A stretch of 64,000 nt of DNA. Source: a virus. Numbering within the stretch: position 1 is the stretch's first letter; every line of letters begins with the position of its first letter. Of this stretch, positions 1 through 64,000 are shown piece after piece. The stretch covers positions 1 through 64,000 of IMG/VR virus record IMGVR_UViG_3300042569_001270; one strand, given 5' to 3'. The position numbers and the translations under genes are program-made. The notes beneath the pieces are model-generated. The model was not told the origin of the DNA. It was given only the letters and a program-made list of their open reading frames with translations, and ran no database searches.

Positions 1-44
1 CGCGTCTACCGCTGCCCAGTGCATGCTTGGGTACGCGGGCTAAC

Positions 45-782
45 GTGGCACGCAAGAAACAGGACGGCGACGAAGACGACGGCATGACAATGGCGGAGTT
101 CAACCGTCGTCTTCAACGCTACCTTGATGAAAAAGAAGGCAAGGACACAAGGCAGGGCCAGCGTTTTAACGTAACCAAGAAAGTTGTTAAAAACCAAAAA
201 GCCTACCGTGAGTGGCTAAATCACACCAACGCTTTTGGTCCTCCAAGGAGACCAACGTATGTCCCTTCCGACGTCTCTTTCCCGTCACGTCCTGCTTCCA
301 ATCGAGCACATTCACCCGAACACTTGGAACCACAACAAAGTGTCGGCAGAGACGCTCGACAAGATTCGGCACGGACTGAAGGAGTACAAAAAGGAGACGG
401 GATCGTACCTTCCAATACTTGTGCGACCGCACCCCAGCCCGAAGCTGAAGGGCCAGTACGAGATTGTAGATGGGGAACACCGGTACCTCTTGTACCGGGA
501 CGAACTCCGCGAAAGCCAAGTTCCCGCCATCGTCCAGCCGATGAGCGACTCGTTGGCTCGCAAGATGACGGTGCGGACGAACTACCTGCACGGCGACCCC
601 GACCCACTCCGGTACGCAGACCTGCTGTCAGACCTGATTCGAGCGGGGGAGTCGATAAGCGACCTGTCAAACGGTCTCCCCGAAAGCTCGGAGGAACTTC
701 AGAAAATCCTGAACCAAAAGGAACTGGAGGACGATCTGGCGGAGGCTCTCGCGGAGGCCGAGGAAGAGTCCGCAAATCATAA
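45..782 (+). CDS. Hypothetical protein; only the first ~70 aa look genuine, and the ORF overlaps the next gene by >500 nt
   Basis: GTG at 45 directly follows a TAA at 41-43. The N-terminus is charged and helical-looking; the remainder is R/P-rich and off-frame-like. Confidence 0.3.
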   Translation: MARKKQDGDEDDGMTMAEFNRRLQRYLDEKEGKDTRQGQRFNVTKKVVKNQKAYREWLNHTNAFGPPRRPTYVPSDVSFPSRPASNRAHSPEHLEPQQSVGRDARQDSARTEGVQKGDGIVPSNTCATAPQPEAEGPVRDCRWGTPVPLVPGRTPRKPSSRHRPADERLVGSQDDGADELPARRPRPTPVRRPAVRPDSSGGVDKRPVKRSPRKLGGTSENPEPKGTGGRSGGGSRGGRGRVRKS

Positions 783-1020
783 ATCTACAAAGGGCAGCCA
801 GAGCGCTTTTGTTGATCTTAAATTCACAGTGTCAGTAGAAGCCGCTGAGATTATTGAACGAGAGGTCACGCGGCTCGCTGACCACATTGGCGGCAAAAAC
901 TCTCGCGGGCGGGCACTGGAGTACATGGCCGTCTCGTCGTCGCAGTCCCCTCTTCCGGGGGCTAAGACGAGCACTCGTACTCTCAAGACAACAACCTCGG
1001 GGCTTGAGAGGCGGAAGTGA
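259..1020 (+). CDS. ParB/Sulfiredoxin N-terminal domain protein
   Basis: IHPNTWNHN, PILVRP and YEIVDGEHRY motifs; AAGGAG Shine-Dalgarno before ATG 259. Confidence 0.88.
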   Translation: MSLPTSLSRHVLLPIEHIHPNTWNHNKVSAETLDKIRHGLKEYKKETGSYLPILVRPHPSPKLKGQYEIVDGEHRYLLYRDELRESQVPAIVQPMSDSLARKMTVRTNYLHGDPDPLRYADLLSDLIRAGESISDLSNGLPESSEELQKILNQKELEDDLAEALAEAEEESANHKSTKGSQSAFVDLKFTVSVEAAEIIEREVTRLADHIGGKNSRGRALEYMAVSSSQSPLPGAKTSTRTLKTTTSGLERRK

Positions 1021-2120
1021 AAGTCTCTCTGAAACTTTTTAACAATAAACAAGAAAAACTTGAAGGGTGTGGCACTGCTGAGTGGTGTGCCAAGTGCCGA
1101 CTGTTTAACAAAGTCTGCGCAGGTAACAACGGCGGCTGCACTACCAAGCAAGACGTTGCTCAACGTGAGTGCTACTCGGCCTGCAACACCTGTGGGGGCG
1201 GGCCAGCCAAGCCACACTCTGCTCCAGCGGTGTGCTGCAAATCACCGCTCAAGACCATCCTCCTTGAGCAGGCTCTCGGGGCAAAGAACGAAGAAGGAAA
1301 AGAGTTCTTCCTCGTCACGCCTCGCCCAAAAATTGTTGTTAAACACACAGGCATCGTCGTTACGCAGGGCAGCCCCGGTGCGGCGTTTGGATCGTCAGAC
1401 TCCCCTTTTCCTCCAGAGGTTGAAGCAGTCGCGGTGAACATTCGCCACGTCTGGTCAAAGTCTGCTGGCTGGTGGAGCGACGACCTTCGGGACTATCTTC
1501 GAGTTCCTGCAAACGTAAAGTTAATACTTTTGACTTCTGTATTTGATAATCGTCTTGAGGATGCTTGGGACGCAGGCCTTCACGAGGAAGACTTCTCTCA
1601 GCTTGGCTTTGACTACTGGCAGAACCTCAGCTTCTCTATTTACGCTGAAGACTCTCCAATGCAGTCGTACTGGTCCACCCTTCGCAGCCTTAGGTCGGTT
1701 CAGGGCAACAAGTCGTGGTTCGCCGAAGATGTGCGTGCTCCCCGCTTGATGCCGGAGTGGACCAAAGCGCGACTACTAGAACAGGTGAGTAAGCTTCCTC
1801 AGCTTGTCTTGAACTTCCAGTTTATCCGTGGGGACAAGGCAGAGCTGCTGGCTCACGGCGCAGACTTGAAGGCGTACCATGCACTACTGCCAGCGAACGT
1901 GGCCATCTGGATTCTTGGACCGGTTCAGCCTGCTGCTATTCGCTTTTTTAAGAAACTTGCACCCAATCGCAGTCTTTATTTTCTTTCTGCTTTGCCGTGG
2001 ATCGGCGCACACCGTGGCGCTCTTCTTAGTAGCAACGGCAAGTTGGTGCGCAGCAAGATCAACAAAAAAGACCTTGTCTGGGCAAACCAGAGAGCGTATT
2101 TAAAGATCACATCGGGGTAG
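1017..2120 (+). CDS. Cys-rich N-terminus plus DUF4417-like domain; candidate DNA-modification enzyme
   Basis: About 9 Cys in the first 75 aa. FDNRLEDAW and NLSFSIYAEDSPMQSYWSTLRS resemble the DUF4417 pattern (DDYxFExxW ... PDFSxYxDxP..QxWxxYRS). GTGA overlap with the ParB-N gene. Confidence 0.6.
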   Translation: MKVSLKLFNNKQEKLEGCGTAEWCAKCRLFNKVCAGNNGGCTTKQDVAQRECYSACNTCGGGPAKPHSAPAVCCKSPLKTILLEQALGAKNEEGKEFFLVTPRPKIVVKHTGIVVTQGSPGAAFGSSDSPFPPEVEAVAVNIRHVWSKSAGWWSDDLRDYLRVPANVKLILLTSVFDNRLEDAWDAGLHEEDFSQLGFDYWQNLSFSIYAEDSPMQSYWSTLRSLRSVQGNKSWFAEDVRAPRLMPEWTKARLLEQVSKLPQLVLNFQFIRGDKAELLAHGADLKAYHALLPANVAIWILGPVQPAAIRFFKKLAPNRSLYFLSALPWIGAHRGALLSSNGKLVRSKINKKDLVWANQRAYLKITSG

Positions 2121-2123
2121 CAC

Positions 2124-2249
2124 ATGGCCATCAAAAACCGGACGTCTAAGAAGCGGGTGCCCAAGGGGGCTACTGGACGAACTTCTACAAAAGGCGTAGC
2201 TTCACGCGCAGCTACTGCTGGGAAGAAAGTTAAGCCCCCCAAGGAGTAG
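2124..2249 (+). CDS. 41-aa highly basic peptide (MAIKNRTSKKRVPKGATGRTSTKGVASRAATAGKKVKPPKE)
   Basis: ATG 3 nt after the previous stop and TAG 3 nt before the next start; fills the gap exactly. Too short for the supplied ORF track. Confidence 0.6.
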   Translation: MAIKNRTSKKRVPKGATGRTSTKGVASRAATAGKKVKPPKE

Positions 2250-2252
2250 ATC

Positions 2253-5150: not shown

Positions 5151-6770
5151 ATGGACGGCCCCGTGAGCGCGCTGGCTGAACTCTCGAAGAGCATGGGCGG
5201 GGGAGGCGAACCCTCCCCCAAGACGTGGTTCGTCAACCCGAACGAGATGCTCGACTCGATGGGGATGGGGTACCAGAAGACCCCGTCCACTGTGACGTAC
5301 GAGACGCTGCGCGTGATGTCGATGCGCAACAGCGTCATCGCGTCGATCATCCAGACCCGCGTCAATCAGGTTGCCTCGTTCTGTCAGACGCCTCGCAACC
5401 AGTACGAGGTGGGCTTCGAGATTCGTCACCGTGATCCGCACCACAAGATGACGACGTCCGACAAGGACTTCGCCAAGCGGCTCACTCGGTACATCCTGAA
5501 CTGCGGCGAAGACTACAACATTGATCGTGACGACTTTGAGTCGTTTACCCGTAAGGTCATCCGTGATCGCCTTACGTTTGATCAATTGAACTTTGAGAAG
5601 ATTCCAAGGTTTGATCGGTTGCCCAGCAGCTTCCATGCTGTGGACGCGAGCACCATCCGGCTGAAGCGTCGGCCCACCAGCCACGGTGAGCCTATTGCTC
5701 CTCACGACCATGAGGACGAGGTTCGCTACGTCCAGCTGATTGAAGGCGTCGAGATGGCGTCTTTCACGCCGCTGGAGCTTGCCTTCGGCGTCGCCAACCC
5801 CCGCACCGACATTCGGGTCAACGGTTACGGACTCAGCGAGCTTGAACTGCTGATGACGACCGTGACTTACCACCTCTTTGCGGAGCAGTGGAACCAGAAG
5901 GTCTTTTCGCAGGGCAGCACGGTGAAGGGCATCCTGAACATCACCGGCAACATTCCGCAGAACCAGCTGGAGAACTTCAAGCGGCAGTGGATAGCTCAGG
6001 TCTCGGGTGTCTCGAACGCGTGGCGCACGCCCATCTTGAACACTGAGAATCTGCAGTGGGTTCCGTTGCAGCCGAGCAACAACGACATGGGTTACCAGCA
6101 GTGGCTGGAGTACCTTATTAAGGTTGCGTGCGCCATCTACCTGATTGACCCCGCCGAGATTAACTTTGATCTTCGTGGTAGTCAGGGGATGCAGCCCGCC
6201 TTCATGTCGTCGAACGAGGCGCAGCAGAAGGTCTCAAAGGATCGCGGCCTCCAGCCGCTGATGCGGTTCTACTTCAACCAGCTGAACAAGCACCTCATCT
6301 GGCCGTTCAGCGACCAGTGGGAGATCAGCCCTGTCGGTCTTGACGCCAAGACCGAGCAGCAGGCGATCCAGCTTCGTCAGACCTCGCTGCAGTCGCACCG
6401 CACCCTCAACGAGATTCGCGCTGAGGAGGGTCGCCCGCCTGTCGAGAACGGTGACGTGGTGCTCAACCCTGTCTACATCGGCTACCTGCAGCAACAGCAG
6501 GCAGCCCAGCAGGCGCAGCAGCAGGCACAGGCAGCCCAGCAGGCCCCCCAAGGCCCGCAGGGCGCTCCTGAGGCCGGTCCTGCCCAGTCTCCGGGCATGC
6601 AGGAAGCTGCACAGCAGCAGCAGGCAACTGACCAGTTTGCAGGTGCACCTAGCGCGGATATGGAGAGCGAGACTGCCGCTGGCGGCAACGCTCTTGAGCG
6701 ATACGCTGGAACGCCTGAGCAGCAGGAACTTCTTCAGCGGTACTACGGCAGCTTCCTGACACCTCGGTAA
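5151..6770 (+). CDS. Portal protein
   Basis: IIQTRVNQV, RDRLTFDQLNFEK, NPRTDIRVNGYGLSELE, IDPAEINF and SKDRGLQPLMRF match SPO1/Twort-type portals; Gln-rich C-terminal tail. Confidence 0.93.
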   Translation: MDGPVSALAELSKSMGGGGEPSPKTWFVNPNEMLDSMGMGYQKTPSTVTYETLRVMSMRNSVIASIIQTRVNQVASFCQTPRNQYEVGFEIRHRDPHHKMTTSDKDFAKRLTRYILNCGEDYNIDRDDFESFTRKVIRDRLTFDQLNFEKIPRFDRLPSSFHAVDASTIRLKRRPTSHGEPIAPHDHEDEVRYVQLIEGVEMASFTPLELAFGVANPRTDIRVNGYGLSELELLMTTVTYHLFAEQWNQKVFSQGSTVKGILNITGNIPQNQLENFKRQWIAQVSGVSNAWRTPILNTENLQWVPLQPSNNDMGYQQWLEYLIKVACAIYLIDPAEINFDLRGSQGMQPAFMSSNEAQQKVSKDRGLQPLMRFYFNQLNKHLIWPFSDQWEISPVGLDAKTEQQAIQLRQTSLQSHRTLNEIRAEEGRPPVENGDVVLNPVYIGYLQQQQAAQQAQQQAQAAQQAPQGPQGAPEAGPAQSPGMQEAAQQQQATDQFAGAPSADMESETAAGGNALERYAGTPEQQELLQRYYGSFLTPR

Positions 6771-6780: not shown

Positions 6781-11525
<4,745 letters not shown>

Positions 11526-15482: not shown

Positions 15483-18400
15483 ATGACCAAACTTCTCAAA
15501 AAGTCTGACGGTAACCCTGCAGAACCCTCAAAGATGGGCCGCCCTCCTGAGGGCAAGCCGAAGGATGCACAGGGTCACGCCGTAACCGGCGACGGTCACC
15601 GCATCGTAGAGAACCCCGGTATCTATGGAGGCAAGTGGTACCGCGACAAGCGTGGCTTCGTTCAGTACGGCGTCCTACAGCCCCGTGGTGCGCCTCTGCA
15701 GGGGCCACGCTTCGCCCCGCTCGGAGGTGCCAAGCCTCTGGCTACTCGTGCAGGAGGCAAGGCCGCACGAGGGGCCACTGCCTCGGCTGTCGAAACGCTC
15801 ACCGGCATCAGGAACATCTATGCGACTGCCAATGCCACAGGGTTTGGTCTGTCGAGTGTCAGCCCGCTCACGGCTCTTCTATCCGGCGAGATTCGTAACG
15901 AACTGAACCTTGGAAACGTAGACGTCAAAGACGTCAAAAAGATGATTAACACCGGTACCCTTCCAAGTGGTGCCGGTGTGCTGAGTGGGCTGATCGCCTC
16001 AAAACTTGGGCTTCCGCTGGACAGCCTCGAAGAGTTTGCTGGGCTGGTGCGAGCCGCAGAGCGGGGAGGCTTTGACGTTGAAGATGCGCTCGGGCGAATG
16101 ATTGACGAGCGGATGCGCCTGCCTGACGGCAGCATGCCCGATAACTACGAGGAGACCCGCGAACTCCTCATCGCGTCGGTTTTTGAAGCCTTTGACAGTC
16201 TTCAAGACGACCACGACGTGCAGACCGCCGTCTCGCAGGCGGTCAGTGCTGCACAGGCAAACGATTTTATTATTGAACAGGCTATTAACACGGTCAACAC
16301 TCACAGAGACAAGCTCGGCTCTATTTTTGATCACTCTGTTCCTGTAGAGACTCGTTTCGTCCGTTTCTTGGCCGTTTCGCGGGAGCTTGGGTTGCTGAGT
16401 TTCGTGCGCGACCTTGAGATGGTTCGCCAGCACTTCAGGCCAGACGGATCACCGGTACCTATTGGTGAGCAGCTGAAGCAGCTTGGCGCAGTTCGCATCA
16501 ACACAGCGGGCGTCAGCTGGATGATCCGCCGTCTTAACAACCTTGCTGGGACGGATCAGGCACACACAACGCTCGCGCAGATTTTGCCCGTCCTTCTTCG
16601 TTACGACGCGTGGCAGCGGGCAAAGGCTCTTGGCTCAGACGCCGATCAACAAGTTGCGTCGTTTACCACTCCTGATGGTGAAGCTCGTGGGGACTTTGTT
16701 CACAAGTTTGCACCGGGTACTGACCAGTTTGAGCGCTTCAACGCTGACCCATCGGCGTTCTTTGAAGACCCGCAGTGGCAGAGGGAAGGCAACCTCCCAA
16801 CGCAGGACGATGGCCTTGAGGTTGCGCTCGTCAACCAGCTAATCGCCGAGAGTCCTCCCGAGTTGCTTACTCGCAATAATGTACTTAACTTTATTAAACA
16901 TACAAACGCTGAAGGGGAGCGCTTTGCCTCGATGCTGGAAGACTACGCCTCAGGAAACATGGGGGCGTACGGCTACCACCTCACCAAAGCGTTCGCCGCA
17001 AACGCTGTGACCCTCAAGGACGCGTTTGACGACCGAGCAGTTGAGGGCATCCTCACCAAGCTCGCTGGGCGTGCTGACCGGATCGTGAAGGCTATGCAGG
17101 CTCGTGTAGCCCACCCAGAGGCAATCAAGGCCACGTTGCCCCCTGACACGCTCAAGCACCTTGAGACCGCTGGCTTCGGCGGGGTACCCATCACTGTTCT
17201 GCCCACCCAGCTTCGTGCTGTGGCGCACGCACTGGCAGCGGAGCGCTCCATCTGCGGGCTGGACGTCGGCCTCGGGAAGACACTGGTCGCCGCGCTCTTT
17301 GCGGCCTCCCTGCTTCACCAAAAAAAGTCGCAGATCGTCTTTCACGTTTTGCCAAAGATGACGATTGATCAGTACCCTGAGCAGCTCAGGACTTTCCTTG
17401 GTCCCAGCTTCCAGTACCGCAGCATCGCCACGCAGGACATCTCCACCCGAGGCGTGGACTACCCAGAGGCTCTTGCCACGCTAGAAGCCATCTTGGCGGG
17501 CAAGAAGCAGTTTGCTCCCAACGTGATCATCTCAAACTCTTGGCTGGACGGTGGCCGGGAGTTGGAGGACTTGAAGCGTGCTGAGGGGTTGAACGTCTAC
17601 GACAGCAAGACAAACCAGTTCATCCCAAACCCCGCACTTTCTGAGCAGGAGTACGAGGACCGTCTGGACAAGCTGATTCCCCAGCTTCGCTTCGTGCAGC
17701 TTATTAAAGCTATTCAAGAGAAGTACGGCGCGGCGTTTATTATTGACGAAGCTCACTCACCGGGCGCGGGTCTTCGTAACGAGAAGAACATCGCCTACAA
17801 AGTTTTCCGTCACATGACGGAAGGTGCTGACCACGTTCTGGGTATGACGGCAAACGCTGCGTCGAACGGTGTCAAAGACATCGTGACGATGATGGGAGCG
17901 ATCAACCCAGAGGCTGTCACCGAAGACGTGCGCAGACTGCAGGAGCAGTATGCCTCCGTTTCGATAGTCCCTAAGCTGGATGCTGACGGAAACCCGACTG
18001 GACAGCGGGTTCGTCAGTACAGCAACCTCGACAGCTTCATGCGCGGCTCAAAAGACTTGATGCCGTTCTTTTATCAAAAAGTAAAAAGCGATCCTGACGT
18101 GCGGGCGGAGCTTGAGTCTGCAGGCTTTACAGTCCCGCAGATGCGCATCCGTCGGCGCAACCACCCAGTGAGTCCCCTTCTGTCACAGTACCTCTCGATG
18201 GCCGAGAACGGGCACGACGACTACGTTCGGCTTGAGAAGGCTCGCATCCGTAACGAACGCAATATCAATCGTTATCGCAATTTTCTTGCAGGCCACAATC
18301 CTTATTACGCAGACAAGAACCTCTACCCAGACGAGGCTCTTTGGTCTCTTCGTACTGTGACTCGTGCGCAGAAGGACGACGATGGTAATTTTTATCGTGA

Positions 18401-20693
18401 TCCCGTCACGGGTGAGTACGCACTCTACGAACAGCCTGTCGCACAGGACTACAAGTTCAAGCCTCCGCGTAAAGACGTTCCCCTTCGCTGGGACGATGTG
18501 AAGGACGACAACACCAAAGCTGCCTTGTACAAGTACAATCTTGCTAAAAAGATTCGTCTTGACCCCGCTATGGTCTGGGGCAACGCCATGCCCGAGGCCC
18601 ATCGTGGGGCCGCGTTTGGCAAGGTTGAAGCTGCTGTCGAGGCAGTGCTTGAGCACATGAACAGCCCCGTCACGAACGACGGCTGCATCATCTTGGCCGT
18701 CGAAAGCGTGCAGGCGATGAAGGTGATTCGCGACCGGCTTCGCGAGGAGGGCGTTGACAGCCCGCTGATCGCTGAGTTCCGTGGTGACGGAGACAGCACC
18801 GTCGTTGACAAGCGCTTGGCTTCAGACCGTGACGCTGCTGCTAAGCTTATTAACAAGAAGCAGATAAAAGTCGCGCTGATGTCCATCCGACTGGCCGTCG
18901 GTCTGAACCTTCAGCACGCCTCCAAGATGGTGATGATTGAAGAGCCGAGCACCGTGCACCACATGGATCAAACTTTGGGGCGCATCAGCCGCATCGGCGG
19001 TAACTCACTGGCAGAGATTGAAATCCTGAACCTGAACACAGACGTGGACTTTAAGGCTCTCCGCAACCGTTATGAGAAAGCCTTGCAGGTCCTTCCGCTG
19101 TTCCAGCACGACGAGTTGCTGGCCACTTCCGACGCGCTACCCGCCCTCATCAACCACATCGAGGCGGGGCTTGAGCGGCTGGGCCTGCCGACGGGTCCTG
19201 ACTACCACGACGAGATGAAGCCGGTGGCCGACCGCGTAGCCCTTGCAGAGCAGCAGGACCGTCTCGGGCTGGGGGGTATCCCTCACGATCTTTCGCGCTT
19301 CAAACAGGTTATTAACGGTCCTGCCTCAAAGTTCTTGCGTATTCCTGCTTCAGCCACCGAGCAGGTCATCCGCTACGCTAAGAACGGCCTCAGCATGATT
19401 AACCAAAAAGCTGAAGCAAACGAAATTCTTTATCAAGAAAAAAAGCGCAGCAAGGACGACTACGAAAAGGTTAAAGAGGCTGTTGATCGCGACCGTGACT
19501 TGTTTATGATGACAACGTCTTTGTTTGGGCAGCAGAACATCGTTGTACCGGGCAAGTACAGTGCCGTCGTTCCTCAGTACGCGAGCTTCGAGTCCACGAG
19601 CGACATCAACCCGTTTGCGGTTCTGGTTTCACAGGCCCAGACACCGGATGCTCGACTCAAGCGCAAGGTCGTCACGAGCTTGATTGATACGCCTAATTCT
19701 GTGATCTCAGACTCAGACGTTCCGGGCGGCAACGACATTTACATTCACTACTACGCGTGGGAGCTTATTCATAAGTACGGTCTGAAGTCTGTTGCGGAGC
19801 TTGTTGAAGGACACGAGCGACAGATCGCAGAAGCTATGGGGCTTTGGAACGACACCTATCGACTGACTCGGTATGTGAAGTACACCAACATGCTGCGAGA
19901 CTGGGCGAAGCAGGGCTACATTCGCTGGACGGGTACTGAGCCTGCACAGCTGCCGTTGAAGACCCCAGAGCTTGGCGAGGTTCGTGGGATTCGGCCCGCA
20001 AGGCCTCCGCCTTACCTGACTGCGGAAGAGGCCCTCCTCCGCTTCATGCTGGCCACGTCCAAGGACCCAAACATGCTTGAGGCCATGCGGCAGTCGCCGG
20101 GCATCCAGCAGGAACTGAAGCACCTTGGACTTGAGCACAAGGACCCCGAGAAGACAGTGCTGACGCCGGGGGCCGCTGCTCACACCCCTACATTTGATCC
20201 TGTTTCTGTGTGGGACGGACGGCAGCACCTCACGGTGACGCCTGCGGAGTTGGGTCAGTTCTGGAGCAACGTGAAGGCGTACCTCGATGGCGGAGGCTCA
20301 ATCAGTAGCGTGGACGAGGCGCATCGTGCGTTGACGGGCAGCACTGGTCCTGTAGGGGAAAGTGCTCAAGCAACGCGCATTATTATGTACGAGTTCGAGA
20401 AGCGTGGACTGACTCGCTCGACGTACACGCCAAGCGTTCCTCAGATTCGCGTCTCTCGTATCGGCAAGCACAACCTTCCCAACTTTGAAGACCTTCCTGC
20501 AGAGGGCAAAGTTATTAAAGGCGACGACCTTGAACACTACTGGGAGACGCTCTACAACTACTTGGACGCAGGCAACAGTCTGACGAGCCACGAAGGCCTC
20601 GCATCCGTTCTCGGGCTGAAACCAGAAGACCAATCACTGACACGCCACATCATGGACGAGTTCATCCGCCAGCGACTCGTCGTGAGGAGCTAA
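15483..20693 (+). CDS. 1736-aa protein with a SNF2/SWI2-like superfamily 2 ATPase core
   Basis: Q-motif LPTQ, Walker A LDVGLGKT, IIDEAH, motif III GMTAN, motifs V/VI AVGLNLQ...DQTLGRISRIG; long N- and C-terminal extensions. Confidence 0.88.
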   Translation: MTKLLKKSDGNPAEPSKMGRPPEGKPKDAQGHAVTGDGHRIVENPGIYGGKWYRDKRGFVQYGVLQPRGAPLQGPRFAPLGGAKPLATRAGGKAARGATASAVETLTGIRNIYATANATGFGLSSVSPLTALLSGEIRNELNLGNVDVKDVKKMINTGTLPSGAGVLSGLIASKLGLPLDSLEEFAGLVRAAERGGFDVEDALGRMIDERMRLPDGSMPDNYEETRELLIASVFEAFDSLQDDHDVQTAVSQAVSAAQANDFIIEQAINTVNTHRDKLGSIFDHSVPVETRFVRFLAVSRELGLLSFVRDLEMVRQHFRPDGSPVPIGEQLKQLGAVRINTAGVSWMIRRLNNLAGTDQAHTTLAQILPVLLRYDAWQRAKALGSDADQQVASFTTPDGEARGDFVHKFAPGTDQFERFNADPSAFFEDPQWQREGNLPTQDDGLEVALVNQLIAESPPELLTRNNVLNFIKHTNAEGERFASMLEDYASGNMGAYGYHLTKAFAANAVTLKDAFDDRAVEGILTKLAGRADRIVKAMQARVAHPEAIKATLPPDTLKHLETAGFGGVPITVLPTQLRAVAHALAAERSICGLDVGLGKTLVAALFAASLLHQKKSQIVFHVLPKMTIDQYPEQLRTFLGPSFQYRSIATQDISTRGVDYPEALATLEAILAGKKQFAPNVIISNSWLDGGRELEDLKRAEGLNVYDSKTNQFIPNPALSEQEYEDRLDKLIPQLRFVQLIKAIQEKYGAAFIIDEAHSPGAGLRNEKNIAYKVFRHMTEGADHVLGMTANAASNGVKDIVTMMGAINPEAVTEDVRRLQEQYASVSIVPKLDADGNPTGQRVRQYSNLDSFMRGSKDLMPFFYQKVKSDPDVRAELESAGFTVPQMRIRRRNHPVSPLLSQYLSMAENGHDDYVRLEKARIRNERNINRYRNFLAGHNPYYADKNLYPDEALWSLRTVTRAQKDDDGNFYRDPVTGEYALYEQPVAQDYKFKPPRKDVPLRWDDVKDDNTKAALYKYNLAKKIRLDPAMVWGNAMPEAHRGAAFGKVEAAVEAVLEHMNSPVTNDGCIILAVESVQAMKVIRDRLREEGVDSPLIAEFRGDGDSTVVDKRLASDRDAAAKLINKKQIKVALMSIRLAVGLNLQHASKMVMIEEPSTVHHMDQTLGRISRIGGNSLAEIEILNLNTDVDFKALRNRYEKALQVLPLFQHDELLATSDALPALINHIEAGLERLGLPTGPDYHDEMKPVADRVALAEQQDRLGLGGIPHDLSRFKQVINGPASKFLRIPASATEQVIRYAKNGLSMINQKAEANEILYQEKKRSKDDYEKVKEAVDRDRDLFMMTTSLFGQQNIVVPGKYSAVVPQYASFESTSDINPFAVLVSQAQTPDARLKRKVVTSLIDTPNSVISDSDVPGGNDIYIHYYAWELIHKYGLKSVAELVEGHERQIAEAMGLWNDTYRLTRYVKYTNMLRDWAKQGYIRWTGTEPAQLPLKTPELGEVRGIRPARPPPYLTAEEALLRFMLATSKDPNMLEAMRQSPGIQQELKHLGLEHKDPEKTVLTPGAAAHTPTFDPVSVWDGRQHLTVTPAELGQFWSNVKAYLDGGGSISSVDEAHRALTGSTGPVGESAQATRIIMYEFEKRGLTRSTYTPSVPQIRVSRIGKHNLPNFEDLPAEGKVIKGDDLEHYWETLYNYLDAGNSLTSHEGLASVLGLKPEDQSLTRHIMDEFIRQRLVVRS

Positions 20694-21105: not shown

Positions 21106-21136
21106 TCTTCCAGTACTTTCACGTTTGGAGCCACCC

Positions 21137-22006: not shown

Positions 22007-22823
22007 TGACATCGTCAAAGCAGATGGGTCCTTCACAGCTTGGCAGCCCGTGGATGGCACGCTGTTGAAGGCAGAGCCGAAAGGCTCTCCGTACCTCGCC
22101 AAGATTCAGGGCTACTGCTCCACGGAGAAGAAGGATCGTCAAGACGAGGTCCTGCTTCAGCGCGGCCTCGACTTCGACGACTTCGTCAGGTACGGCTTCT
22201 TCAACGATAACCACGCACAGGAGACCGGTGCGCAGGTGGGTGTTCCGCTGATGGCCGAGTACCACCCCGGACGAGGCTGGTACACGGAGGGCTACCTCCT
22301 GAAGTCTCCGAGATCAGAACGCATTTATGATCTTGCAAAAGCCTTGGTCGGTACCAACCGGAAGCTGGGCTTTTCGGTCGAGGGCAAGGTCGAGGGCCGC
22401 GAAGGCAAGACCATCGTTAAGGCAAAGATTCGTCACGTCGCAATCACCCACTGCCCTGTAAACCCTGAGTGCACATGGGAGATCGTGGCAAAGGCACTCA
22501 GCGCCGGAGGCACTGCCGGAGGTAGCGCCAACGGTGCTACGATCTACAGCAACGGTGATACTGATCTCGAACGCGACAGCCCTCTTCCCGGCGAGGATGG
22601 CAAGCACCGTTGTCATCACAAAGGCTGTCGCACTGTTAAGAAGTCTCAGAAGGCCCTTGATCTTCACCTCAAGGAAGTGCATGGTCAGGCCCACGGCTTG
22701 AAAGTGAAACGTGACAGTGACATTGTGAAGGGCTACAGTCGGGAAGAGGCGCTAGAGTTTATCCGTCGAGTGCGACCAAACTGGCCCGAAGGATTGATTA
22801 TTAACGCGTTGTCGAGGCGCTAA
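21996..22823 (+). CDS. Prohead protease
   Basis: IQGYCSTEKKDRQDE, GFFNDNH, LGFSVEGKV, VAITHCPVN; located before scaffold and capsid. Confidence 0.92.
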   Translation: MQLDDIVKADGSFTAWQPVDGTLLKAEPKGSPYLAKIQGYCSTEKKDRQDEVLLQRGLDFDDFVRYGFFNDNHAQETGAQVGVPLMAEYHPGRGWYTEGYLLKSPRSERIYDLAKALVGTNRKLGFSVEGKVEGREGKTIVKAKIRHVAITHCPVNPECTWEIVAKALSAGGTAGGSANGATIYSNGDTDLERDSPLPGEDGKHRCHHKGCRTVKKSQKALDLHLKEVHGQAHGLKVKRDSDIVKGYSREEALEFIRRVRPNWPEGLIINALSRR

Positions 22824-43170: not shown

Positions 43171-44766
43171 ATGTCCACCTCACAGCTCAAGTTCCCCTTC
43201 GTCTCGGTGAATCTCCAGCGCTGGGATGCCGCAGATCAGGCTCTCCTGACCGACTACACCTCCGCACTGGTGCGTGAGTGCTTGAAGGACGTGGTCGTCG
43301 GGGACGCTCTCGGGAGGGTCTTCAAGGGCTTTCAGCCGGTGGTGAACGTTCCGAACAAGACGGTCACGTTCTCGGGCGAAGGCGTGGCCGTGGACAAGGA
43401 CGGCAACCTGCTGGTTGCCATCTCGTCGTTCAACACCGTGCTGTCCCTCACTGGGCTGGCTGCCACGAAGCAGTTTTACGTCTTCGCGTACGCCAAGCCC
43501 GTGATCGACACTGTGAACAAGGCTGACCGAAAGATTTGGAACACGAGCACTACTTCTGAGAGTCAGGCGTCTGTTCCTGTCTTCAAGGACTCTGTTATTA
43601 ACGTTGTTGTAAGCGACGCCTACACAATCGCCCCCAACAACGTCAGTGGTTGCCCTGTCAGCTACGTTGATCCGCTCGACGGCAACACCTACACGACGCT
43701 GCCGCTGGCTTCCTTCAACACGGACGGCTCCGCAGGGATCGTTGACTTTAGGGACATTCGCAAGATGTACGCCGTGGACGGCAACGTCGAGGCGGGCGTC
43801 ACTGGGTTGCTGACTGAGCTTCCCCATGATTTTACTAATACCGACAAGACGCTTGGCATCAGGACGGTGCGGGACTTCTTCAAGGCCATCGTCAGCCGAG
43901 TGAAGGACATCGTCGGCAAGCCGAACTGGTACGACGCCCCTGATCCCATCAGCCTGTCTTCTATCTACGGACAGATTGGACCCTTTGGGTCAGGCGTCAA
44001 CCGAGTCCCTTTTGTCAGCAGCACTGCCAGCCTTCCTGCTACTCCCAACAACCGTGATATTGTCTGGTACACGACCTACAGAAGCCTGTACGTCTATGAC
44101 TCGTCCTCCACTCAGGGGCCTGATACGGGGGGCTGGTCACAGACCCGACGAGTCCTCAAGCGCGATGCCCTCTTGGACACCGATCCGGGTAGGTGGTTCC
44201 TGCTGGGATCGGGGTACGGTCTGCTCAAGGCTGTTAATGGCGTTGCCACGCTTGACGCCAACGCTCTGCTTGAGCAGGACGTTAGGCCCAACTCGATAGG
44301 GTCAAACAAGCTTATTAAAGGTGCGTACTTCGTTACTGGAGTAGTTAGGATCACTCGAACCGGTATTTCTTCCTACACCGCTGAGGTTATTTATAACACT
44401 GACCATCCTAGCAATATGGCTGCTACCGTAACTGTTTCTGGGCAGGGCTTTAGTAAGGTGGCCGTAACTTGGGACGACACCTCTACAGAAGCGAAGTACG
44501 GTCGCATTTTGCGTAATCTTCAAGTATCGGACATGTACTTAGAGACCGACGCTGCAAACCACCTGTTTGAGGGGGCCAGAAGGCTCGTTCCTTACGCTGA
44601 TACTGGTGATGCAGCCTCTAAACTCGGCCAGTTCTCAGACTTTAGTAAGGGTTTTTCCGTTCAGCTTTATGACTACCCTAACGGTGTCCCCACTGCTCTT
44701 GTCACTGGCACCCCTTACGGTCCTCAGGCGTGGTTTACATTCAGCGTTTTCTCGATGTCAGCCTAG
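43171..44766 (+). CDS. Baseplate/tail-fibre attachment protein
   Basis: Follows the wedge genes; beta-rich; IVGKPNWY motif. Confidence 0.6.
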   Translation: MSTSQLKFPFVSVNLQRWDAADQALLTDYTSALVRECLKDVVVGDALGRVFKGFQPVVNVPNKTVTFSGEGVAVDKDGNLLVAISSFNTVLSLTGLAATKQFYVFAYAKPVIDTVNKADRKIWNTSTTSESQASVPVFKDSVINVVVSDAYTIAPNNVSGCPVSYVDPLDGNTYTTLPLASFNTDGSAGIVDFRDIRKMYAVDGNVEAGVTGLLTELPHDFTNTDKTLGIRTVRDFFKAIVSRVKDIVGKPNWYDAPDPISLSSIYGQIGPFGSGVNRVPFVSSTASLPATPNNRDIVWYTTYRSLYVYDSSSTQGPDTGGWSQTRRVLKRDALLDTDPGRWFLLGSGYGLLKAVNGVATLDANALLEQDVRPNSIGSNKLIKGAYFVTGVVRITRTGISSYTAEVIYNTDHPSNMAATVTVSGQGFSKVAVTWDDTSTEAKYGRILRNLQVSDMYLETDAANHLFEGARRLVPYADTGDAASKLGQFSDFSKGFSVQLYDYPNGVPTALVTGTPYGPQAWFTFSVFSMSA

Positions 44767-45927: not shown

Positions 45928-46196
45928 GTACGCTCATCTTCATAACCCCAAGCGAAAGCGAGGGGCCTGCGTCTCCCGCGTACTTGATCATGCACGGGAG
46001 TGTAGACTTCCTCGGAAGCTCTCTCGACCTACGCAACAACCCCGAGTTCTTCTTACCGGGTACCTACGCGCTGTTCGACGTTGCTGACTGCACCAGCGTT
46101 ACTAACGAAGCGTCACTGGTTGTCACGCCTCACCCACCGCGTACGGCAGGGGTGCCGTTCCGCGTTGGTAATCTTATTTGTGTGACGCTGACTTGA
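45924..46196 (+). CDS. Small beta protein, paralog of 52538-52819
   Basis: GSVDFLGSSLDL...GTYALF...CT..NE...ICV; ATGA overlap with the previous gene. Confidence 0.7.
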   Translation: MSTLIFITPSESEGPASPAYLIMHGSVDFLGSSLDLRNNPEFFLPGTYALFDVADCTSVTNEASLVVTPHPPRTAGVPFRVGNLICVTLT

Positions 46197-47341: not shown

Positions 47342-48013
47342 ATGAGTCTGAGTCTCGCGAAGCCGCTCCCCAAGGGAGCCGAGTACCTTGCCGATGTCGC
47401 CGCCAAGGCTGGCGCTGACAACGGGATCAGTCCGTACCTGCTGCTGGGCATCTGCTACGCCGAGAGCAACTTCGGCGCGGCCCTGAAGCCCCCCGGACCC
47501 ACTGGGACGGGTGACTTCATCCCTCGCGTGGCCGACAAGGACACGAACGAGAAGATGGCCAAGAACCCCCTGCCCGGCGTCGAGAAGAAAGTCCTGCCCG
47601 ACGGGATCAAGGCTCGCAAGGTTGCTGGTCCTGTCGAGGCTTGGGTGCCGACGCACACCGGCTGGGGCTGCGGTCTGCTCCAGTTTGATTACGAAGCGCA
47701 CTACGAGTTCTGCAAGAGCGGCGCGTGGAAGGAGCCTGCCAAGGTGTTTGATCAGGCGTGCAAGCTCCTCAAGGGCAACCGCTCGTTCCTCGCCAAGAAG
47801 CACCCCGAACTGACGGGCATCGCTCTCGACCGTGCGATGATCGCTTCGTACAACGCTGGGGCTGGTCGGGTGAGCAAGTTCCTCACCGACAAGAAGAGCC
47901 TTGACGAGTGCACGTTCCATCCGGGCTACATTGATAAGATTTGCAAGAAGGCCGATGAGTTTGCCGGTGCCTCCGGCGCGTTCGCCACCCCCTCCACCGC
48001 TCCGGTGGCCTAA
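47342..48013 (+). CDS. Endolysin, lytic transglycosylase (SLT/lysozyme-like)
   Basis: LLLGICYAESNFG (catalytic ES), GLLQFD, ASYNAGAGRV, YIDKI. Confidence 0.85.
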   Translation: MSLSLAKPLPKGAEYLADVAAKAGADNGISPYLLLGICYAESNFGAALKPPGPTGTGDFIPRVADKDTNEKMAKNPLPGVEKKVLPDGIKARKVAGPVEAWVPTHTGWGCGLLQFDYEAHYEFCKSGAWKEPAKVFDQACKLLKGNRSFLAKKHPELTGIALDRAMIASYNAGAGRVSKFLTDKKSLDECTFHPGYIDKICKKADEFAGASGAFATPSTAPVA

Positions 48014-53788: not shown

Positions 53789-54091
53789 ATGGATAAGCTG
53801 GGTTCGCTTCTCGCAGTTGTTCTGAACGCCCTGAAGGGGCTTGGCAATCTGGTGGGCAGTCTGCTCGGGAGCTTCCTGCGAAAGACCGACGCGCAGGCGG
53901 CCTCTGAGAAGATCAACGAAGCAGTGAAGAACGCCGAGGCTGCTGCCAACCTCCGTGCGAAGATCGCGGAAGTGAAGCACGCCAAGGTCGAGGCCAAGCT
54001 GGCCGAGGAGAAGAGCCGTGATGCAGTCGAAGGTGCGAATGATCTGCTTGGTCGTCTCCGTGCTGGTGCTGGCGAGGACAGCAAGGGCTGA
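53789..54091 (+). CDS. i-spanin-like protein
   Basis: GGAGG SD; hydrophobic N-terminus followed by coiled coil; overlaps the next gene. Confidence 0.5.
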   Translation: MDKLGSLLAVVLNALKGLGNLVGSLLGSFLRKTDAQAASEKINEAVKNAEAAANLRAKIAEVKHAKVEAKLAEEKSRDAVEGANDLLGRLRAGAGEDSKG

Positions 54092-54446
54092 TTGCCGGGA
54101 GCCGACGCCGGGGCAGGTCGTGTGCGACAAGGAGTCGTTCACTCTGCTCTACAAGGCGGCCCTCGACGGTGAGGCGGCCCCCAAGAAGGCCAAGATCGAG
54201 GCCGAGAAGACCTCTGCGGACCTCGCAGACGCGCGCAAGGTCACTGAGCAGTGTCAGAAGGCTCTGGCTGCTGTTCCGGTGCCTCCCAGCCCGAGGCGAC
54301 TCGCTCTGGGTTACGGGCTTGGCGTCCTGAGCGCGGTCACCCTGACGGTCTCTCCCCTTCCCGATTCTACGGACCTGCGCGTTGGACTTGCAGCGGCAGG
54401 ATTGGCTGGACTGATTAGCGGGTATCTGCTTACTACGCATTATTAA
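54039..54446 (+). CDS. Exported/membrane protein, spanin-partner-like
   Basis: Signal-peptide-like N-terminus (ARA-DC), coiled coil and C-terminal hydrophobic helices; starts inside the previous gene. Confidence 0.5.
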   Translation: MICLVVSVLVLARTARADCREPTPGQVVCDKESFTLLYKAALDGEAAPKKAKIEAEKTSADLADARKVTEQCQKALAAVPVPPSPRRLALGYGLGVLSAVTLTVSPLPDSTDLRVGLAAAGLAGLISGYLLTTHY

Positions 54447-56680: not shown

Positions 56681-58126
56681 ATGTTCACAACTGCCACGCT
56701 TCAGAAGCGTAGGAAGGGTCTTCCCTTCGACGCTGACTTCCAAAGGCGTCTTGTCCGCACCCTCTATCAGGACGCTGCCTTCGCAGCCTCGCTTGTCGGT
56801 CTCCTCGACGCAGAGGCTTTCGAGTCGCGTGTTCTTCGATGGGTGATTGATAAGATTTTCTGGTACCACGATCAGTACAAGACTCACCCCACCAAGATGG
56901 TGCTGGAGCGGGAGGCCAAGAAGGCCGTCCGCTTCGGTGCCGTTCAAGGTGCCGACATTACGGCTCTCGCCCGTACGCTGGACACGCTCGACAACCCGAC
57001 CCCTGACCGCTCGTACCTTGAGGACGAGGTCTACAAGTTTATCAAACGGTCTGAGACTGCGAAGGCTCTGCACGCTATCGAGAAGGCGATACGCACCAAC
57101 GACTTTGACGCCGTTGATGCGGAGATGACGAAGGCCTCCTCGTTCAAGCCTGCGAGGACCAATGAGTTCGGTAAGACCGCTGCGCACAACGTGAAGGAGC
57201 GCGTGAAGCGCCGCCTCCGGCAGCAGGAGTTCGGCATCACGAGCGGTACGCCCATTGATCGCGTAATGAAGTCTGAGGGCATCCAGCGCAAGCAGGTCGG
57301 CATCGTCATCGGTCCCACGGGTCGCGGTAAGACCGCCACGCTGGTTCACAACGCCTGCGCCGCTGCGGAGGACGGGAGCAAGGTTCTCTACATTTCGCTG
57401 GAGCTTGACGAGGACGACATTCTTGATCGTATCGACGCTCGCCTCTGCAGCATCGACATGAACAATCTCAAGAAGAAGCCCAAGACGATTCAGGAAATGT
57501 ACATGAACAAGCTTGCCACCGTGGGCGAGCGCATCCACACGAAGTACTACCCACCGGGATCACTGTCTGTGGGTGGCCTCCGCGCCTACATCAAGAAGCT
57601 GGAGACCATCGGCTTCTACCCTGACCTGATCGTCTGCGACTACGTTGACCTTATGAAACCGACGCTGCGCTTCGAGGCCGGTGACGACTACGCCGCCCAA
57701 GGCTCCGTCGTCCGTGAGATGCGCGGTCTCATGGGTGAGCTGAACATGGCTTGCTGGACCGCCTCACAGGCCAACCGTGGCGCTCTGGACGTTGAGGTTG
57801 TTGATAAACAGCACGTCGCTGACTCGTTCCAGAAGATGTTTATCGCAGACGTGGTCGTGACCCTCTGTCAGACCTTGGAAGAGAAGAACCGTGGGATCAC
57901 CCGACTCTTCCTCGCCAAGAACCGAAACGGCTACGACGGCATGGAGTTCTACGTTAAGCTCAACACCGCGCAGTGCCGCATCATCGAGATGCCCACGCCG
58001 GTCAAGCAGCAGGTCAAGCCGAACCAGCCCAAGGCCGCCCAGAAGATTGGTCAGGCTCTGCGGTCAGGCCCTGTCATCACCCCGACGATTCGACGCAAGA
58101 AGACAACCCCTTCCTTGGTGGCGTAA
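56681..58126 (+). CDS. dnaB: Replicative DnaB-like helicase
   Basis: GPTGRGKT, VLYISLE, IVCDYVDL, WTASQANR, KNRNG. Confidence 0.93.
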   Translation: MFTTATLQKRRKGLPFDADFQRRLVRTLYQDAAFAASLVGLLDAEAFESRVLRWVIDKIFWYHDQYKTHPTKMVLEREAKKAVRFGAVQGADITALARTLDTLDNPTPDRSYLEDEVYKFIKRSETAKALHAIEKAIRTNDFDAVDAEMTKASSFKPARTNEFGKTAAHNVKERVKRRLRQQEFGITSGTPIDRVMKSEGIQRKQVGIVIGPTGRGKTATLVHNACAAAEDGSKVLYISLELDEDDILDRIDARLCSIDMNNLKKKPKTIQEMYMNKLATVGERIHTKYYPPGSLSVGGLRAYIKKLETIGFYPDLIVCDYVDLMKPTLRFEAGDDYAAQGSVVREMRGLMGELNMACWTASQANRGALDVEVVDKQHVADSFQKMFIADVVVTLCQTLEEKNRGITRLFLAKNRNGYDGMEFYVKLNTAQCRIIEMPTPVKQQVKPNQPKAAQKIGQALRSGPVITPTIRRKKTTPSLVA

Positions 58127-58995
58127 TGTTCACAACTTCCTCGCTCACTCGTAAGCTGACCAGCACGCTGAAGCGCAAGTCTTCAGTCGTCCTCGAAGGA
58201 GACGCCTTCGAGTTGATGTCTAAGATCAAAGACAACTCTGCCGCTGCTTGGATTTTCGACCCTCCGTTCCCGAAGGTTGAAGAGCACAGGGCCACGGGCA
58301 CGACCACGCGCCTCAAGATCAGCAAGTCCAGCCACAACCCGTGGTTCGACGCTGCCAAGTTCGCCTACGAGAAGCTGCCTGCCCTCCTGCGACACGCCGA
58401 CCGAACGCTGGTTGCCGGTGGGCACTTCCTGATGAAGTGTGACTTTGATCTTCTGCAGGAGGTACTGAAGCTCTACCCTGCCGCCGGAGGTGCTCTGCCG
58501 TCGGTGGGTAGCGAGACCAGCCTCGTCCCTCAGAAGCTGTTGCTCTGGGACAAGCAGGCTCTGGGCACCGGCTACGTCTTTCGATCCCGTCACGAGTACT
58601 GGCTTTGGATGGTGAAGGGTTCCAAGCGTCGTCGTGTGCCGAACGAGAACATGTCCCTCTCGGACGTGTTCCGTTACAAGCGGCTCAAGGGGAAGAAGTA
58701 CAGCCCTGCTCAGATGCCTCTGGCGATGGCCTACGACTTGGTCAGTCAGGTCACTCAGGTAGGGGACCTCGTTGTTGATCCGTTCTGCGGTGGCGGCGGG
58801 ACGGTGCCGGTGGTCACCTCCGTCCTCGGTCGTCGCATCTGGGCCTGTGAGTTGGACCCCAGCTTCGCCAAGCTTGCCAACGAGAGGGTCGCTCGCGCCC
58901 TGTCGAAGAAGGACGACCTCCGGTCAGAGCTTCGTGGCCTGTCACTTGCTCACCAGCAAGGAGCAGTCCCCGAACACTCAACGATCATGGAGTAA
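58126..58995 (+). CDS. Beta-class N6-adenine/N4-cytosine DNA methyltransferase
   Basis: Motif IV FDPPF precedes motif I VVDPFCGGG; WDKQALGTGY..R..HE; TAATG coupling to dnaB. Confidence 0.88.
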   Translation: MFTTSSLTRKLTSTLKRKSSVVLEGDAFELMSKIKDNSAAAWIFDPPFPKVEEHRATGTTTRLKISKSSHNPWFDAAKFAYEKLPALLRHADRTLVAGGHFLMKCDFDLLQEVLKLYPAAGGALPSVGSETSLVPQKLLLWDKQALGTGYVFRSRHEYWLWMVKGSKRRRVPNENMSLSDVFRYKRLKGKKYSPAQMPLAMAYDLVSQVTQVGDLVVDPFCGGGGTVPVVTSVLGRRIWACELDPSFAKLANERVARALSKKDDLRSELRGLSLAHQQGAVPEHSTIME

Positions 58996-58997: not shown

Positions 58998-60032
58998 GTG
59001 CGAGCACCGATCACCAGTCAGCTGCGGGACGCCATCAAGGCCTTCGACATCGAGAAGTTCCTCAGTGAGCATGCCTCTCTCAAGCCTGCGGGTGACGAGA
59101 GGATCATGGACTGTCCTGTCTGTGGAGAGGACGGGCACAGCGACAAGCTTTGGTTCAATGTTAAGAAGAAAACGGGGTGGTGTTATGTGTGCGAGGAGTC
59201 GTGGTCGCTCGTCAAGGTCGTCGGACACTTTCTCAACCTCGACCTGCGAAAGCCCTCGCAGTACATCAAGATTTGCCAGTTCCTTTATGACGCGACGGGT
59301 GTCACGAACACGTCCACATTACGAAGGACGCTCGAAGCTTCCCAAGCCGCCCTCGCTCCTGAAGAGGTTGAGGTTGAGACTCCGCGTTATGTCGCGCCGC
59401 CTGCTCTTGATCTACCTGCGGAATTTGTGACTCTGCCGAAGAAGCTCCCCGCGTACTTCGCCACACGCAACATCACGAAGGAGCAGGTCAAGCGTCACGG
59501 AATCGGCTGGTGTGAGCGCGGGTACTTTAAGAACCGTATGATTATTCCAGTCGTTATGAACAAGAAGGTCGTCAGCTACATCGCTCGCTACATGGGCAAG
59601 CCGCCCGAAGGCGTGAAGAAGTACCTGTACCCAAAAGGGAACCCGACCGGTAAGACGTTCTTCAACTTTGATAACGCCAAGAAGTTCAAGACCGTCGTGC
59701 TGACGGAGGGCTACCTCGACGCTGTTGCAGTCGGTCTCGACGCGATGGGGCTGGGCGGCAAGAGCCTTTCAGACCAGCAAGCCCTGCTGCTGGCGAGTCT
59801 CGACTTGGACGAGGTCATCGTCATGCTGGACGGCGATTCTGCGGGGCGGGAGGGGGCCACGAAGGTGGCTCGCAAGCTGTCGTCGTTCGTGCCATCTGTG
59901 CGCATCGCCTCGCTGCCGGATGGCAAGGACCCCGACGAGTTGACCGAGGAGGAACTGGCCGCTATCCGAGAGGACGCTTTGCCTCTGAACAGCACGGTTC
60001 CTAAGATCAAAATTGACCTAGAAGATTTTTGA
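58998..60032 (+). CDS. dnaG: DNA primase
   Basis: CPVC...CYVC zinc finger, RMIIP, KYLYP, TOPRIM EGYLDA and LDGDSAG, GKDPD. Confidence 0.92.
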   Translation: MRAPITSQLRDAIKAFDIEKFLSEHASLKPAGDERIMDCPVCGEDGHSDKLWFNVKKKTGWCYVCEESWSLVKVVGHFLNLDLRKPSQYIKICQFLYDATGVTNTSTLRRTLEASQAALAPEEVEVETPRYVAPPALDLPAEFVTLPKKLPAYFATRNITKEQVKRHGIGWCERGYFKNRMIIPVVMNKKVVSYIARYMGKPPEGVKKYLYPKGNPTGKTFFNFDNAKKFKTVVLTEGYLDAVAVGLDAMGLGGKSLSDQQALLLASLDLDEVIVMLDGDSAGREGATKVARKLSSFVPSVRIASLPDGKDPDELTEEELAAIREDALPLNSTVPKIKIDLEDF

Positions 60033-63043: not shown

Positions 63044-63059
63044 GAAGCGGAGAAATAGA

Positions 63060-63103
63060 AAAAAGCCCCCCGCCTACGATGTTCCGTAGGCGGGGGGCTT
63101 TTT
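63060..63103. terminator. Bidirectional rho-independent terminator between convergent genes
   Basis: AAAAAGCCCCCCGCCTACG-ATGTTC-CGTAGGCGGGGGGCTTTTT perfect inverted repeat. Confidence 0.93.
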
Positions 63104-63104
63104 A

Positions 63105-63491
63105 TTACTTGATGTTGACGATACGACCGACCGGATGCTTCGAGTCACCGCAGGACTTCACGGTGGACTTGGTGTCACTTGCGATCAAGCAACCGCACTT
63201 CAGCTTGAGCTTCTTCGCCGGAGGAGCGGATACCGTGAGTCCCTGAGCAGCGGCACGGGCTGCGTAGTCCTTGCCAAGTACCTCTTCAGCGGTCTTCCAG
63301 CCCCGCATCTTGTACTTGTTCTCGTACCACTCCTTGGCTTGGTTGTAGGCCTTGATCGAGTGAAGGTTCTCTTGGAGCCCCTTCTCCGTGTCGATGCGAG
63401 AGATCGTCAAGCTGCAGGAGTTGAACAGCTCTTTGATCGCATGAGAGTCTTGGCTGGTCTCAATCGCCAGTCGCATCTTCTCAACGTCCAT
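63105..63491 (-). CDS. Hypothetical protein with C-terminal CxC...C...H motif
   Basis: ATG at 63491 overlaps the upstream TGA; GAGG SD; ends at the terminator. Confidence 0.7.
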   Translation of the reverse strand: MDVEKMRLAIETSQDSHAIKELFNSCSLTISRIDTEKGLQENLHSIKAYNQAKEWYENKYKMRGWKTAEEVLGKDYAARAAAQGLTVSAPPAKKLKLKCGCLIASDTKSTVKSCGDSKHPVGRIVNIK

Positions 63492-64000
63492 CAGTCGGCC
63501 TCTTCCCAGTCCGTAGAGAGCATGTCGGTCTGCGAGGCGAGCCAAGGAACGTAGTCACCCTGCGCCGTGTGCATGAAGATGTACGGGAGGGTCATCTTGC
63601 TGAGATCAGTCGGGCGCTGCAGTCCGATGAACATACCCTTGCCGTTCCAGCCCTTACGACGGAACACCCACCTGTTGTCGTTGAGGTTGTTGAGGCACCG
63701 CAGCACCCAGCCAAAGGAGCCGTGGTCCCGCTCCTTGAGGTAGTTGATCTCATCCCTCTGTCGCCGGATGGTCTCGGTGAGGTTGGTAGCCTGCAGGGCC
63801 ATCGCCTCCTCACCCATCTTGAGGTTCGCACGGAGCATCTCGATGGTACTCGTGTGGCTGATGATCTCGGCGCGGAGCTTGGCGGACGCTGCTCCGAACT
63901 CCGCCTTCGCGGCGTACCAGTCTTTCTTGTAGGTCTCTGCCTTGGCTTCTGCTGCAAGGCACTGTTCCTCGGCTGAGGCCCGCTCTCGCTCTGCGTCGAG
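63491..64000 (-). CDS. tad2: Coiled-coil protein with C-terminal DUF2829/Tad2-like domain (5' truncated by window edge)
   Basis: FGWVL...[12 protein letters not shown]...[24 protein letters not shown] is the DUF2829 signature; the frame is open to position 64000. Confidence 0.82.

Follow-up and report, generated by a model that had tools for sequence, protein, structure and literature searches.

The word TTRNTAA, in its best form TTANTAA, is written repeatedly into the genes of a tailed myophage found in lake water (IMG/VR record IMGVR_UViG_3300042569_001270), and this word is real, specific and peculiar to the phage, whose coordinated choice of codons maintains it. The genome is a single contig of 81,339 bp with a GC content of 59%; its first 64,000 bp (positions 1-64000) are the window analysed here, to which the site coordinates refer. 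TTANTAA occurs at 38 sites in the window compared to 9.8 expected, a 3.9-fold excess, under the main null, in which synonymous codons are shuffled within each gene so that the protein and the per-gene codon usage are kept (codon null). The gene set for these shuffles consisted of 73 called genes covering 96.5% of the genome.

Excess and definition of the word

The original prediction, made by eye from the letters, described an AT-rich iterated word TTAWYAA at roughly 70 sites. Counting yielded 73 sites for TTAWYAA and its reverse complement against 30.3 in the codon null (standard deviation 4.0, z 10.6), a number reached by 0 of 500 shuffles, and all eight positions offered as examples carry the words assigned to them. 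The broader TTANNAA, with its reverse complement, was likewise in excess (152 vs 86.0). Counted in the same way on both strands, strong excesses were seen for TTATTAA (24 vs 5.9), TTGATAA (27 vs 10.2) and TTACTAA (14 vs 3.7), weak ones for TTGTTAA (22 vs 14.2) and TTCGTAA (15 vs 8.8), and none for TTGGTAA (8 vs 7.9). In the ranking of all 7-mers, TTATTAA/TTAATAA, TTATCAA and TTAGTAA were among the top words, beside a separate TTGATC family.

Masking and substituting positions placed the core at TTANTAA. Single-base variants were flat, as observed/expected counts demonstrate for ATANTAA (5/4.5), CTANTAA (5/6.8), GTANTAA (9/9.4), TAANTAA (4/2.1), TCANTAA (11/15.9), TGANTAA (8/11.3) and TTTNTAA (11/10.4), and no one-base neighbour was enriched except TTGNTAA and, more weakly, TTCNTAA. 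The half sites TTANT and ANTAA were also flat (173 vs 163), while each of the four central bases of the full word was enriched. Among 832 inverted dyads (64 half-sites by 13 spacings), TTA-N1-TAA was the sole strong outlier, with a z of 9.8 compared to 4.4 for the next. The word is thus an AT-rich iterated one, as first described, but its definition is corrected to a TTANTAA core with a sense-strand extension TT[A>G>C]NTAA and an A after it.

The excess was then held against stricter nulls. A dinucleotide shuffle of the window gives 1.6 expected sites against the 38 seen (24-fold). With protein, per-gene codon usage and all dinucleotides kept (dinucleotide-keeping null), the genome-wide count of 42 compares to 11.8, and 9.3 in-frame sites are expected; with T|AA junctions (the bar marking a codon boundary) kept as well, the 38 sites compare to 25.4 (z 7.1), in a null that mixes poorly. 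Block-wise local shuffles and a trinucleotide-preserving null, the latter altering just 4% of third positions, kept the sites almost by construction and were uninformative. Survival of the excess in four nulls supports the proposal that the word is selected or mutationally driven and is written by synonymous codons.

The pattern was confined to this phage. In 17 loci of comparison phages with a GC of at least 0.50, run through the same pipeline, TTANTAA was seen 8 times against 27.3 expected. Among 158 loci from distantly related phages, one short contig reached p = 8e-4 (L036, with 4 TTANTAA among 6 TANTA, and nothing more on further look), and none shows the pattern. A literature search on the word TTANTAA found no related publication.

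Codon placement and strand behaviour

Since 35 of the 38 window sites are read as xTT ANT AAx, two adjacent T-ending codons are needed per site, in agreement with the original prediction. Over all genes, on the sense strand, xTT RNT AAx was found 79 times against 21.7; xTT ANT was enriched when AAx came next (38 vs 8.7) and before no other codon, and xTT GNT AAx across all genome genes gave 41 against 12.9 in the codon null and 16.9 in the dinucleotide-keeping null. Position 3 of the word tolerates C weakly (17 vs 10.0) but not T (5 vs 5.2). A general tendency of T-ending codons to cluster, named at the outset as the finding that could overturn the prediction, fails as an explanation because xTT ANT is in excess only when AAx follows, and xCT, xAT and xGT codons before NNT AAx sit at or below the null. 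The 161 amino-acid triples [LFIV][ITNS][NK] show the same coupling: both T's are present in 38, only the first in 22, only the second in 6 and neither in 95.

For the amino acids [L/F/I/V]-[I/T/N/S or V/A/D/G]-[N/K], codon choice in the phage tends towards xTT, RNT and AAx, with AAA above its usual share, completing the word. Such xTT RNT AAx codons take up 79 of 344 possible amino-acid triples (23%), a share that rises to 41% in genes with the lowest GC at third codon positions (GC3), and the fold excess is steady at 3.2-3.9 across all four GC3 classes. As a class, in-frame T|AA junctions fall short of expectation (312 vs 513), whereas a TT four bases upstream puts them above it (101 vs 36.7). 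When lysine follows the word, AAA encodes it at 21 of 42 sites, compared to 23 of 110 other T|AA junctions. A second frame, TTR NTA A, made of the rarest codons, also carries the word (4 vs 0.7). The amino-acid triple [LFIV][ITN][NK] also exceeds expectation (117 vs 85.9), and the general [LFIV].[NK] is raised too. Synonymous one-step neighbours are depleted on the sense strand, with TCANTAA at 0 vs 9.4 and TGANTAA at 4 vs 7.5.

The core TTANTAA is palindromic and the degenerate forms are sense-biased. In the same frame and against the dinucleotide-keeping null, TTGNTAA stands at 41 vs 16.9 and its reverse complement TTANCAA at 22 vs 17.5, and TTANTGA at 12 vs 7.2 compared to TCANTAA at 4 vs 10.2. 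Structural genes, with those for portal, major capsid, sheath and baseplate, occupy 2.6-54.4 kb on the plus strand; next come a replication block at 54.5-63 kb (UvsW-like helicase, DnaB-like helicase, N6/N4 methylase, primase, RNR and ThyX) and a minus-strand arm at 63.1-79.7 kb (RecA, SSB, PolA and CobT/AAA genes). In the minus-strand genes the excess moves to the other strand with the genes, TT[CG]NTAA standing at 7 vs 2.9 in sense and at 7 vs 8.3 in antisense orientation. The preference for an outer A after the word has no mirror on its left side. Raw TTRNTAA counts in the window are 76 on the plus and 64 on the minus strand, so that the skew appears only relative to the null, and a strong raw skew switching with replication direction, of the Chi or KOPS kind, was not seen. 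The non-palindromic forms thus follow the sense strand relative to the null. Weighed together, these observations tip the balance moderately towards a strand-specific reading over one of both strands.

The TTANTAA sites of the window are given below by coordinates and word, with no strand assigned.

2627-2633, TTACTAA, the only listed site read as TTA CTA A, which takes two very rare codons
4809-4815, TTATTAA, frame xTT ATT AAx
6115-6121, TTATTAA, portal gene
7058-7064, TTAATAA
7187-7193, TTATTAA
7874-7880, TTAGTAA
8810-8816, TTAATAA
15223-15229, TTAATAA
16891-16897, TTATTAA, F-I-K
17701-17707, TTATTAA, L-I-K
18847-18853, TTATTAA, L-I-N
19309-19315, TTATTAA, V-I-N
20512-20518, TTATTAA, V-I-K
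22798-22804, TTATTAA
28442-28448, TTAATAA, at a gene junction and not within one gene
28587-28593, TTAGTAA
29019-29025, TTATTAA
32444-32450, TTAATAA
32699-32705, TTATTAA
33689-33695, TTACTAA
34394-34400, TTACTAA
37998-38004, TTACTAA
40487-40493, TTAATAA
40976-40982, TTATTAA
41771-41777, TTATTAA
41924-41930, TTACTAA
43067-43073, TTAATAA
43595-43601, TTATTAA, V-I-N
43832-43838, TTACTAA, F-T-N, with Asn (AAT) here and Pro at the third residue in both homologues
44312-44318, TTATTAA, L-I-K
44450-44456, TTAGTAA, F-S-K
44642-44648, TTAGTAA, F-S-K
46099-46105, TTACTAA
46674-46680, TTATTAA
47070-47076, TTACTAA
49983-49989, TTACTAA
53018-53024, TTAGTAA
54440-54446, TTATTAA, ending in the stop codon of gene 54018-54446

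The weaker form is listed by its first bases.

184-62208, plus strand, 38 sense-strand sites of TTGNTAA: 184, 1336, 1543, 6788, 9374, 11658, 14238, 14427, 18541, 25792, 27024, 27658, 27889, 29615, 30632, 31756, 32996, 34814, 35630, 36588, 37287, 37944, 38268, 38277, 46165, 46704, 47931, 49410, 51546, 51861, 52287, 53099, 55515, 56847, 57801, 59668, 62066, 62202

At 43832-43838, comparison with the homologues suggests that Asn is possibly an amino-acid change that completes the word. The core motif is missing from the capsid gene, as had been noted, but this absence is uninformative because the gene offers only 4 possible places. Counts are not inflated by repeated DNA, since the flanks of the sites are unrelated.

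Candidate readers and competing explanations

Our favoured explanation, to which we give about an even chance, is that the genome actively retains TTRNTAA (best as TTANTAA, often with A next), most likely through selection. The excess, its specificity, the coupling over two or three synonymous sites and the sense-following of the non-palindromic forms are directly observed, and half-completed versions of the word are avoided. A reader of one strand would be expected, the strand being the mRNA or, if replication and genes share a direction, the lagging-strand template. In the lagging-strand case the word may supply priming sites for the phage zinc-ribbon/Toprim primase, which is our single best guess and, taken alone, an unlikely one; within the same explanation, a reader acting on the mRNA has a similarly low probability. 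Two phage genes encode the candidates.

58998-60032, plus strand, primase combining a zinc ribbon (CxxC...CxxC) with a Toprim domain, the architecture of sequence-specific T7-type primases; candidate strand-specific reader
58126-58995, plus strand, N6/N4 DNA methylase, only distantly resembling CcrM and N4C enzymes; candidate reader or modifier

Several points weigh against selection through a one-strand reader. The palindromic best form suggests a dimeric reader of double-stranded DNA, and TTANCAA is raised in the frame that fixes its C (6 vs 1.0 in the codon null, 6 vs 3.1 in the dinucleotide-keeping null). Counts on the minus arm are small, and because all genes run one way per arm, mRNA, non-template strand and lagging-strand template are inseparable. 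Primase sites are 3-5 nucleotides long, that of T7 primase being 5'-GTC-3', and the eight specified bases of the word are long for such a site. No reader of the word was identified. The sites are spaced no more regularly than random (coefficient of variation 0.92 vs 1.02), so that regular spacing, one of the checks proposed with the prediction, was not significant. The genome also contains many other codon-context distortions arising from restriction-site avoidance. Conservation of sites was compared through the amino-acid triples of homologues only: a homologue of 90% identity keeps 4 of 5 motif triples, approximately the chance expectation at that identity, and a tail-protein homologue of 64% identity keeps 1 of 5. 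Since the four lake runs contain only 100%-identical fragments of the phage, they hold no variation to compare.

The alternative that survives best, unlikely as we judge it, is a duplex palindrome TTA-N-TAA bound or modified by a dimeric protein in the manner of HIP1, the iterated word of cyanobacteria, with the phage N6/N4 methylase as the candidate. The nearest solved relatives of this methylase include CcrM, whose target is GANTC, and an ANT centre would be common to both. The presence of the methylase gene, the isolation of TTA-N1-TAA among all inverted dyads, the enrichment of all four central bases and the raised TTANCAA in the fixed-C frame all agree with such a reader, and HIPs occur in company with methylases (PMC4390886). 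However, the two members of each non-palindromic pair described above differ in the same frame, and the outer A preference is unmirrored on the left. For the original suggestion of a DNA-modification target, the encoded methylase is a candidate whose tie to the word is conjectural, and for the suggested binding site of a packaged or nucleoid-like protein, no nucleoid-like protein was identified.

Slightly less probable is a passive by-product of codon context with no reader at all, in which TA and about 25 six-base palindromes are avoided and T/A-ending codons concentrate in the few contexts permitted. Avoidance is certainly strong (CCWGG 1 vs 235, many six-base palindromes at 0) and gives rise to visible excesses elsewhere, as in CTTGAG (106 vs 60) and TGATC (299 vs 148); that of TTGATC falls from 69 vs 9.5 to 69 vs 27.6 when dinucleotides are kept. 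The TTRNTAA excess, however, survives the dinucleotide-preserving null and is seen in the second frame with the rarest codons. In addition, the word does not serve to evade a forbidden site, because xTC RNC AAx, the default encodings, show no avoidance (41 vs 39.4 and 56 vs 44.0), and the alternatives overlap no avoided site.

Mutation or biased repair pushing near-matches to the full word, as proposed for HIP1, is the most doubtful of the three. The depletion of synonymous one-step neighbours, the excess of the amino-acid triples and the Asn at 43832, where both homologues have Pro, would fit such a drive, but TCRNCAA and TTANCAA, which could be its precursors, show no depletion and short-patch repair is known to restore C rather than T. 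Protein scans covered 40 proteins with Pfam and 30 with PHROGs, 3 of them with both, leaving part of the genes unscanned; no Vsr-, MutH-, HNH- or sigma-like gene was seen among the 40 scanned with Pfam.

Other readings were rejected. Promoters or terminators do not fit sites that are even along genes and bear no relation to gene starts, and no conserved flanks or stems were found around them. An anticodon-loop-like hairpin is contradicted by a mean of 0.65 consecutive closing pairs at sites compared to 0.67 at controls, and AT-rich islands by a near-normal T-ending share of flanking codons and by the lack of enrichment of other AT-only words (ATANTAA, TTTNTAA, TTANTAT). Selection for off-frame stops ("ambush") is at odds with the overall depletion of TAA/TTA (696 vs 1026), and C-to-T deamination of TTGNCAA or TCANTGA with precursors and intermediates that do not fit.

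Apart from the word, restriction-type palindrome avoidance is genome-wide and extreme. Zero counts against 10-41 expected were found for GCCGGC, GGCGCC, CCGCGG, GAGCTC, CTTAAG, CGATCG, CCCGGG, TCCGGA, GGGCCC, TTCGAA, AGATCT, GGATCC, GATATC, CCATGG, GCTAGC and CACGTG, and TATA is seen 3 times against 29; CTGCAG, GGTACC, CAGCTG, GACGTC and others have normal frequency. The over-use of TTGATC is on the sense strand, mostly as xTT GAT Cxx, and arises in part because avoidance of AGATCT, CGATCG and GGATCC favours T before GATC; GATCAA is raised in two frames.

Genome context and relation to known iterated words

Fragments identical to the phage are present in at least four lake-water metagenome runs. 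Relatives of its major capsid protein in phage records, IMG/VR, JGI metagenomes and GTDB genomes reach at most 42% identity, an alignment-based scan for such relatives gave one only (22% identity), and closer proteins (82%, 80% and 90% identity) were found only in Logan assemblies, the 80% match being to the major capsid protein encoded on an 88-kb contig. A search of the phage for tRNA genes found none, and a terminase large subunit was not recognised among the scanned proteins. A protein with a PI3/PI4-kinase-like domain (window 21125-22006, E 2.5e-8) lies amid the head genes, and genome positions 63491-64153 on the minus strand (1491-2153 of locus L081) encode a 220-amino-acid protein in which Pfam detects a Tad2-like anti-Thoeris domain (PF11195, E 5e-19). 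At window 47400-47800, part of a gene that weakly matches an SLT transglycosylase aligns to lake metagenome contigs of other organisms that are less than 90% alike; outside this region the lake metagenome alignments are identical phage fragments only.

The closest parallel of the phage word is HIP1, from which it differs in composition, strength and strand behaviour. HIP1 (GCGATCGC) and the alternate HIPs of cyanobacteria are, like the phage word, short, present about once per kb and located inside genes. Their function is debated, with selection and biased repair both proposed (PMC5861425, PMC4390886), and the over-representation of HIP1 is given as 15-300-fold (PMC5861425). HIP1 is GC-rich, strictly palindromic, chromosomal and tied to known methylases, whereas the phage word, set in a GC-rich genome, is AT-rich, exceeds the codon null about 4-fold, allows several bases at position 3 and favours the sense strand. 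It does not match the very large over-representation of HIP1 (3.9-fold over the codon null, 24-fold over the dinucleotide shuffle), and the HIP1 core CGATCG is absent from the phage (0 vs 20). The HIP1 analogy of the original prediction thus extends to an iterated word inside genes and not to strength, composition or strand. Taken as a whole, the motif-reading interpretation is partly supported, with none of the three proposed functions shown.

Chi sites and primase sites resemble the phage word as short strand-specific words enriched a few-fold, and the strand carrying it would likewise be the lagging-strand template if genes and forks are co-directional. Known Chi sites are G-rich. Unlike these sites, the phage word has near-equal raw counts on the two strands. 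Codon-pair (codon-context) bias also involves non-random neighbouring of synonymous codons; however, the phage word spans three codons with six or seven fixed bases, lacks any xCT/xAT/xGT excess and occurs in a second frame too.

A fuller form of the favoured explanation, held more tentatively than selection itself, is that the word is the phage's own iterated signal, carried in synonymous codons and partly in amino acids and read strand-specifically about a hundred times per genome by a phage or host factor, which could serve lagging-strand priming or the handling of late mRNA. The signal takes 23% of all places the proteins permit, may even bend protein sequences, and belongs to a phage that recurs nearly unchanged in several lake metagenomes. 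A reader, if there is one, should be findable by pull-down with a 7-8-nucleotide probe (TTATTAAA). If there is none, the phage would be a warning that heavy restriction avoidance, together with codon context, can pass for a functional motif. Iterated words under selection, such as Chi, HIP1 and uptake sequences, have each exposed DNA-handling machinery, and few are known in phages; if the proposal is true, TTRNTAA would play in a phage the part of HIP1, Chi or DNA-uptake sequences.

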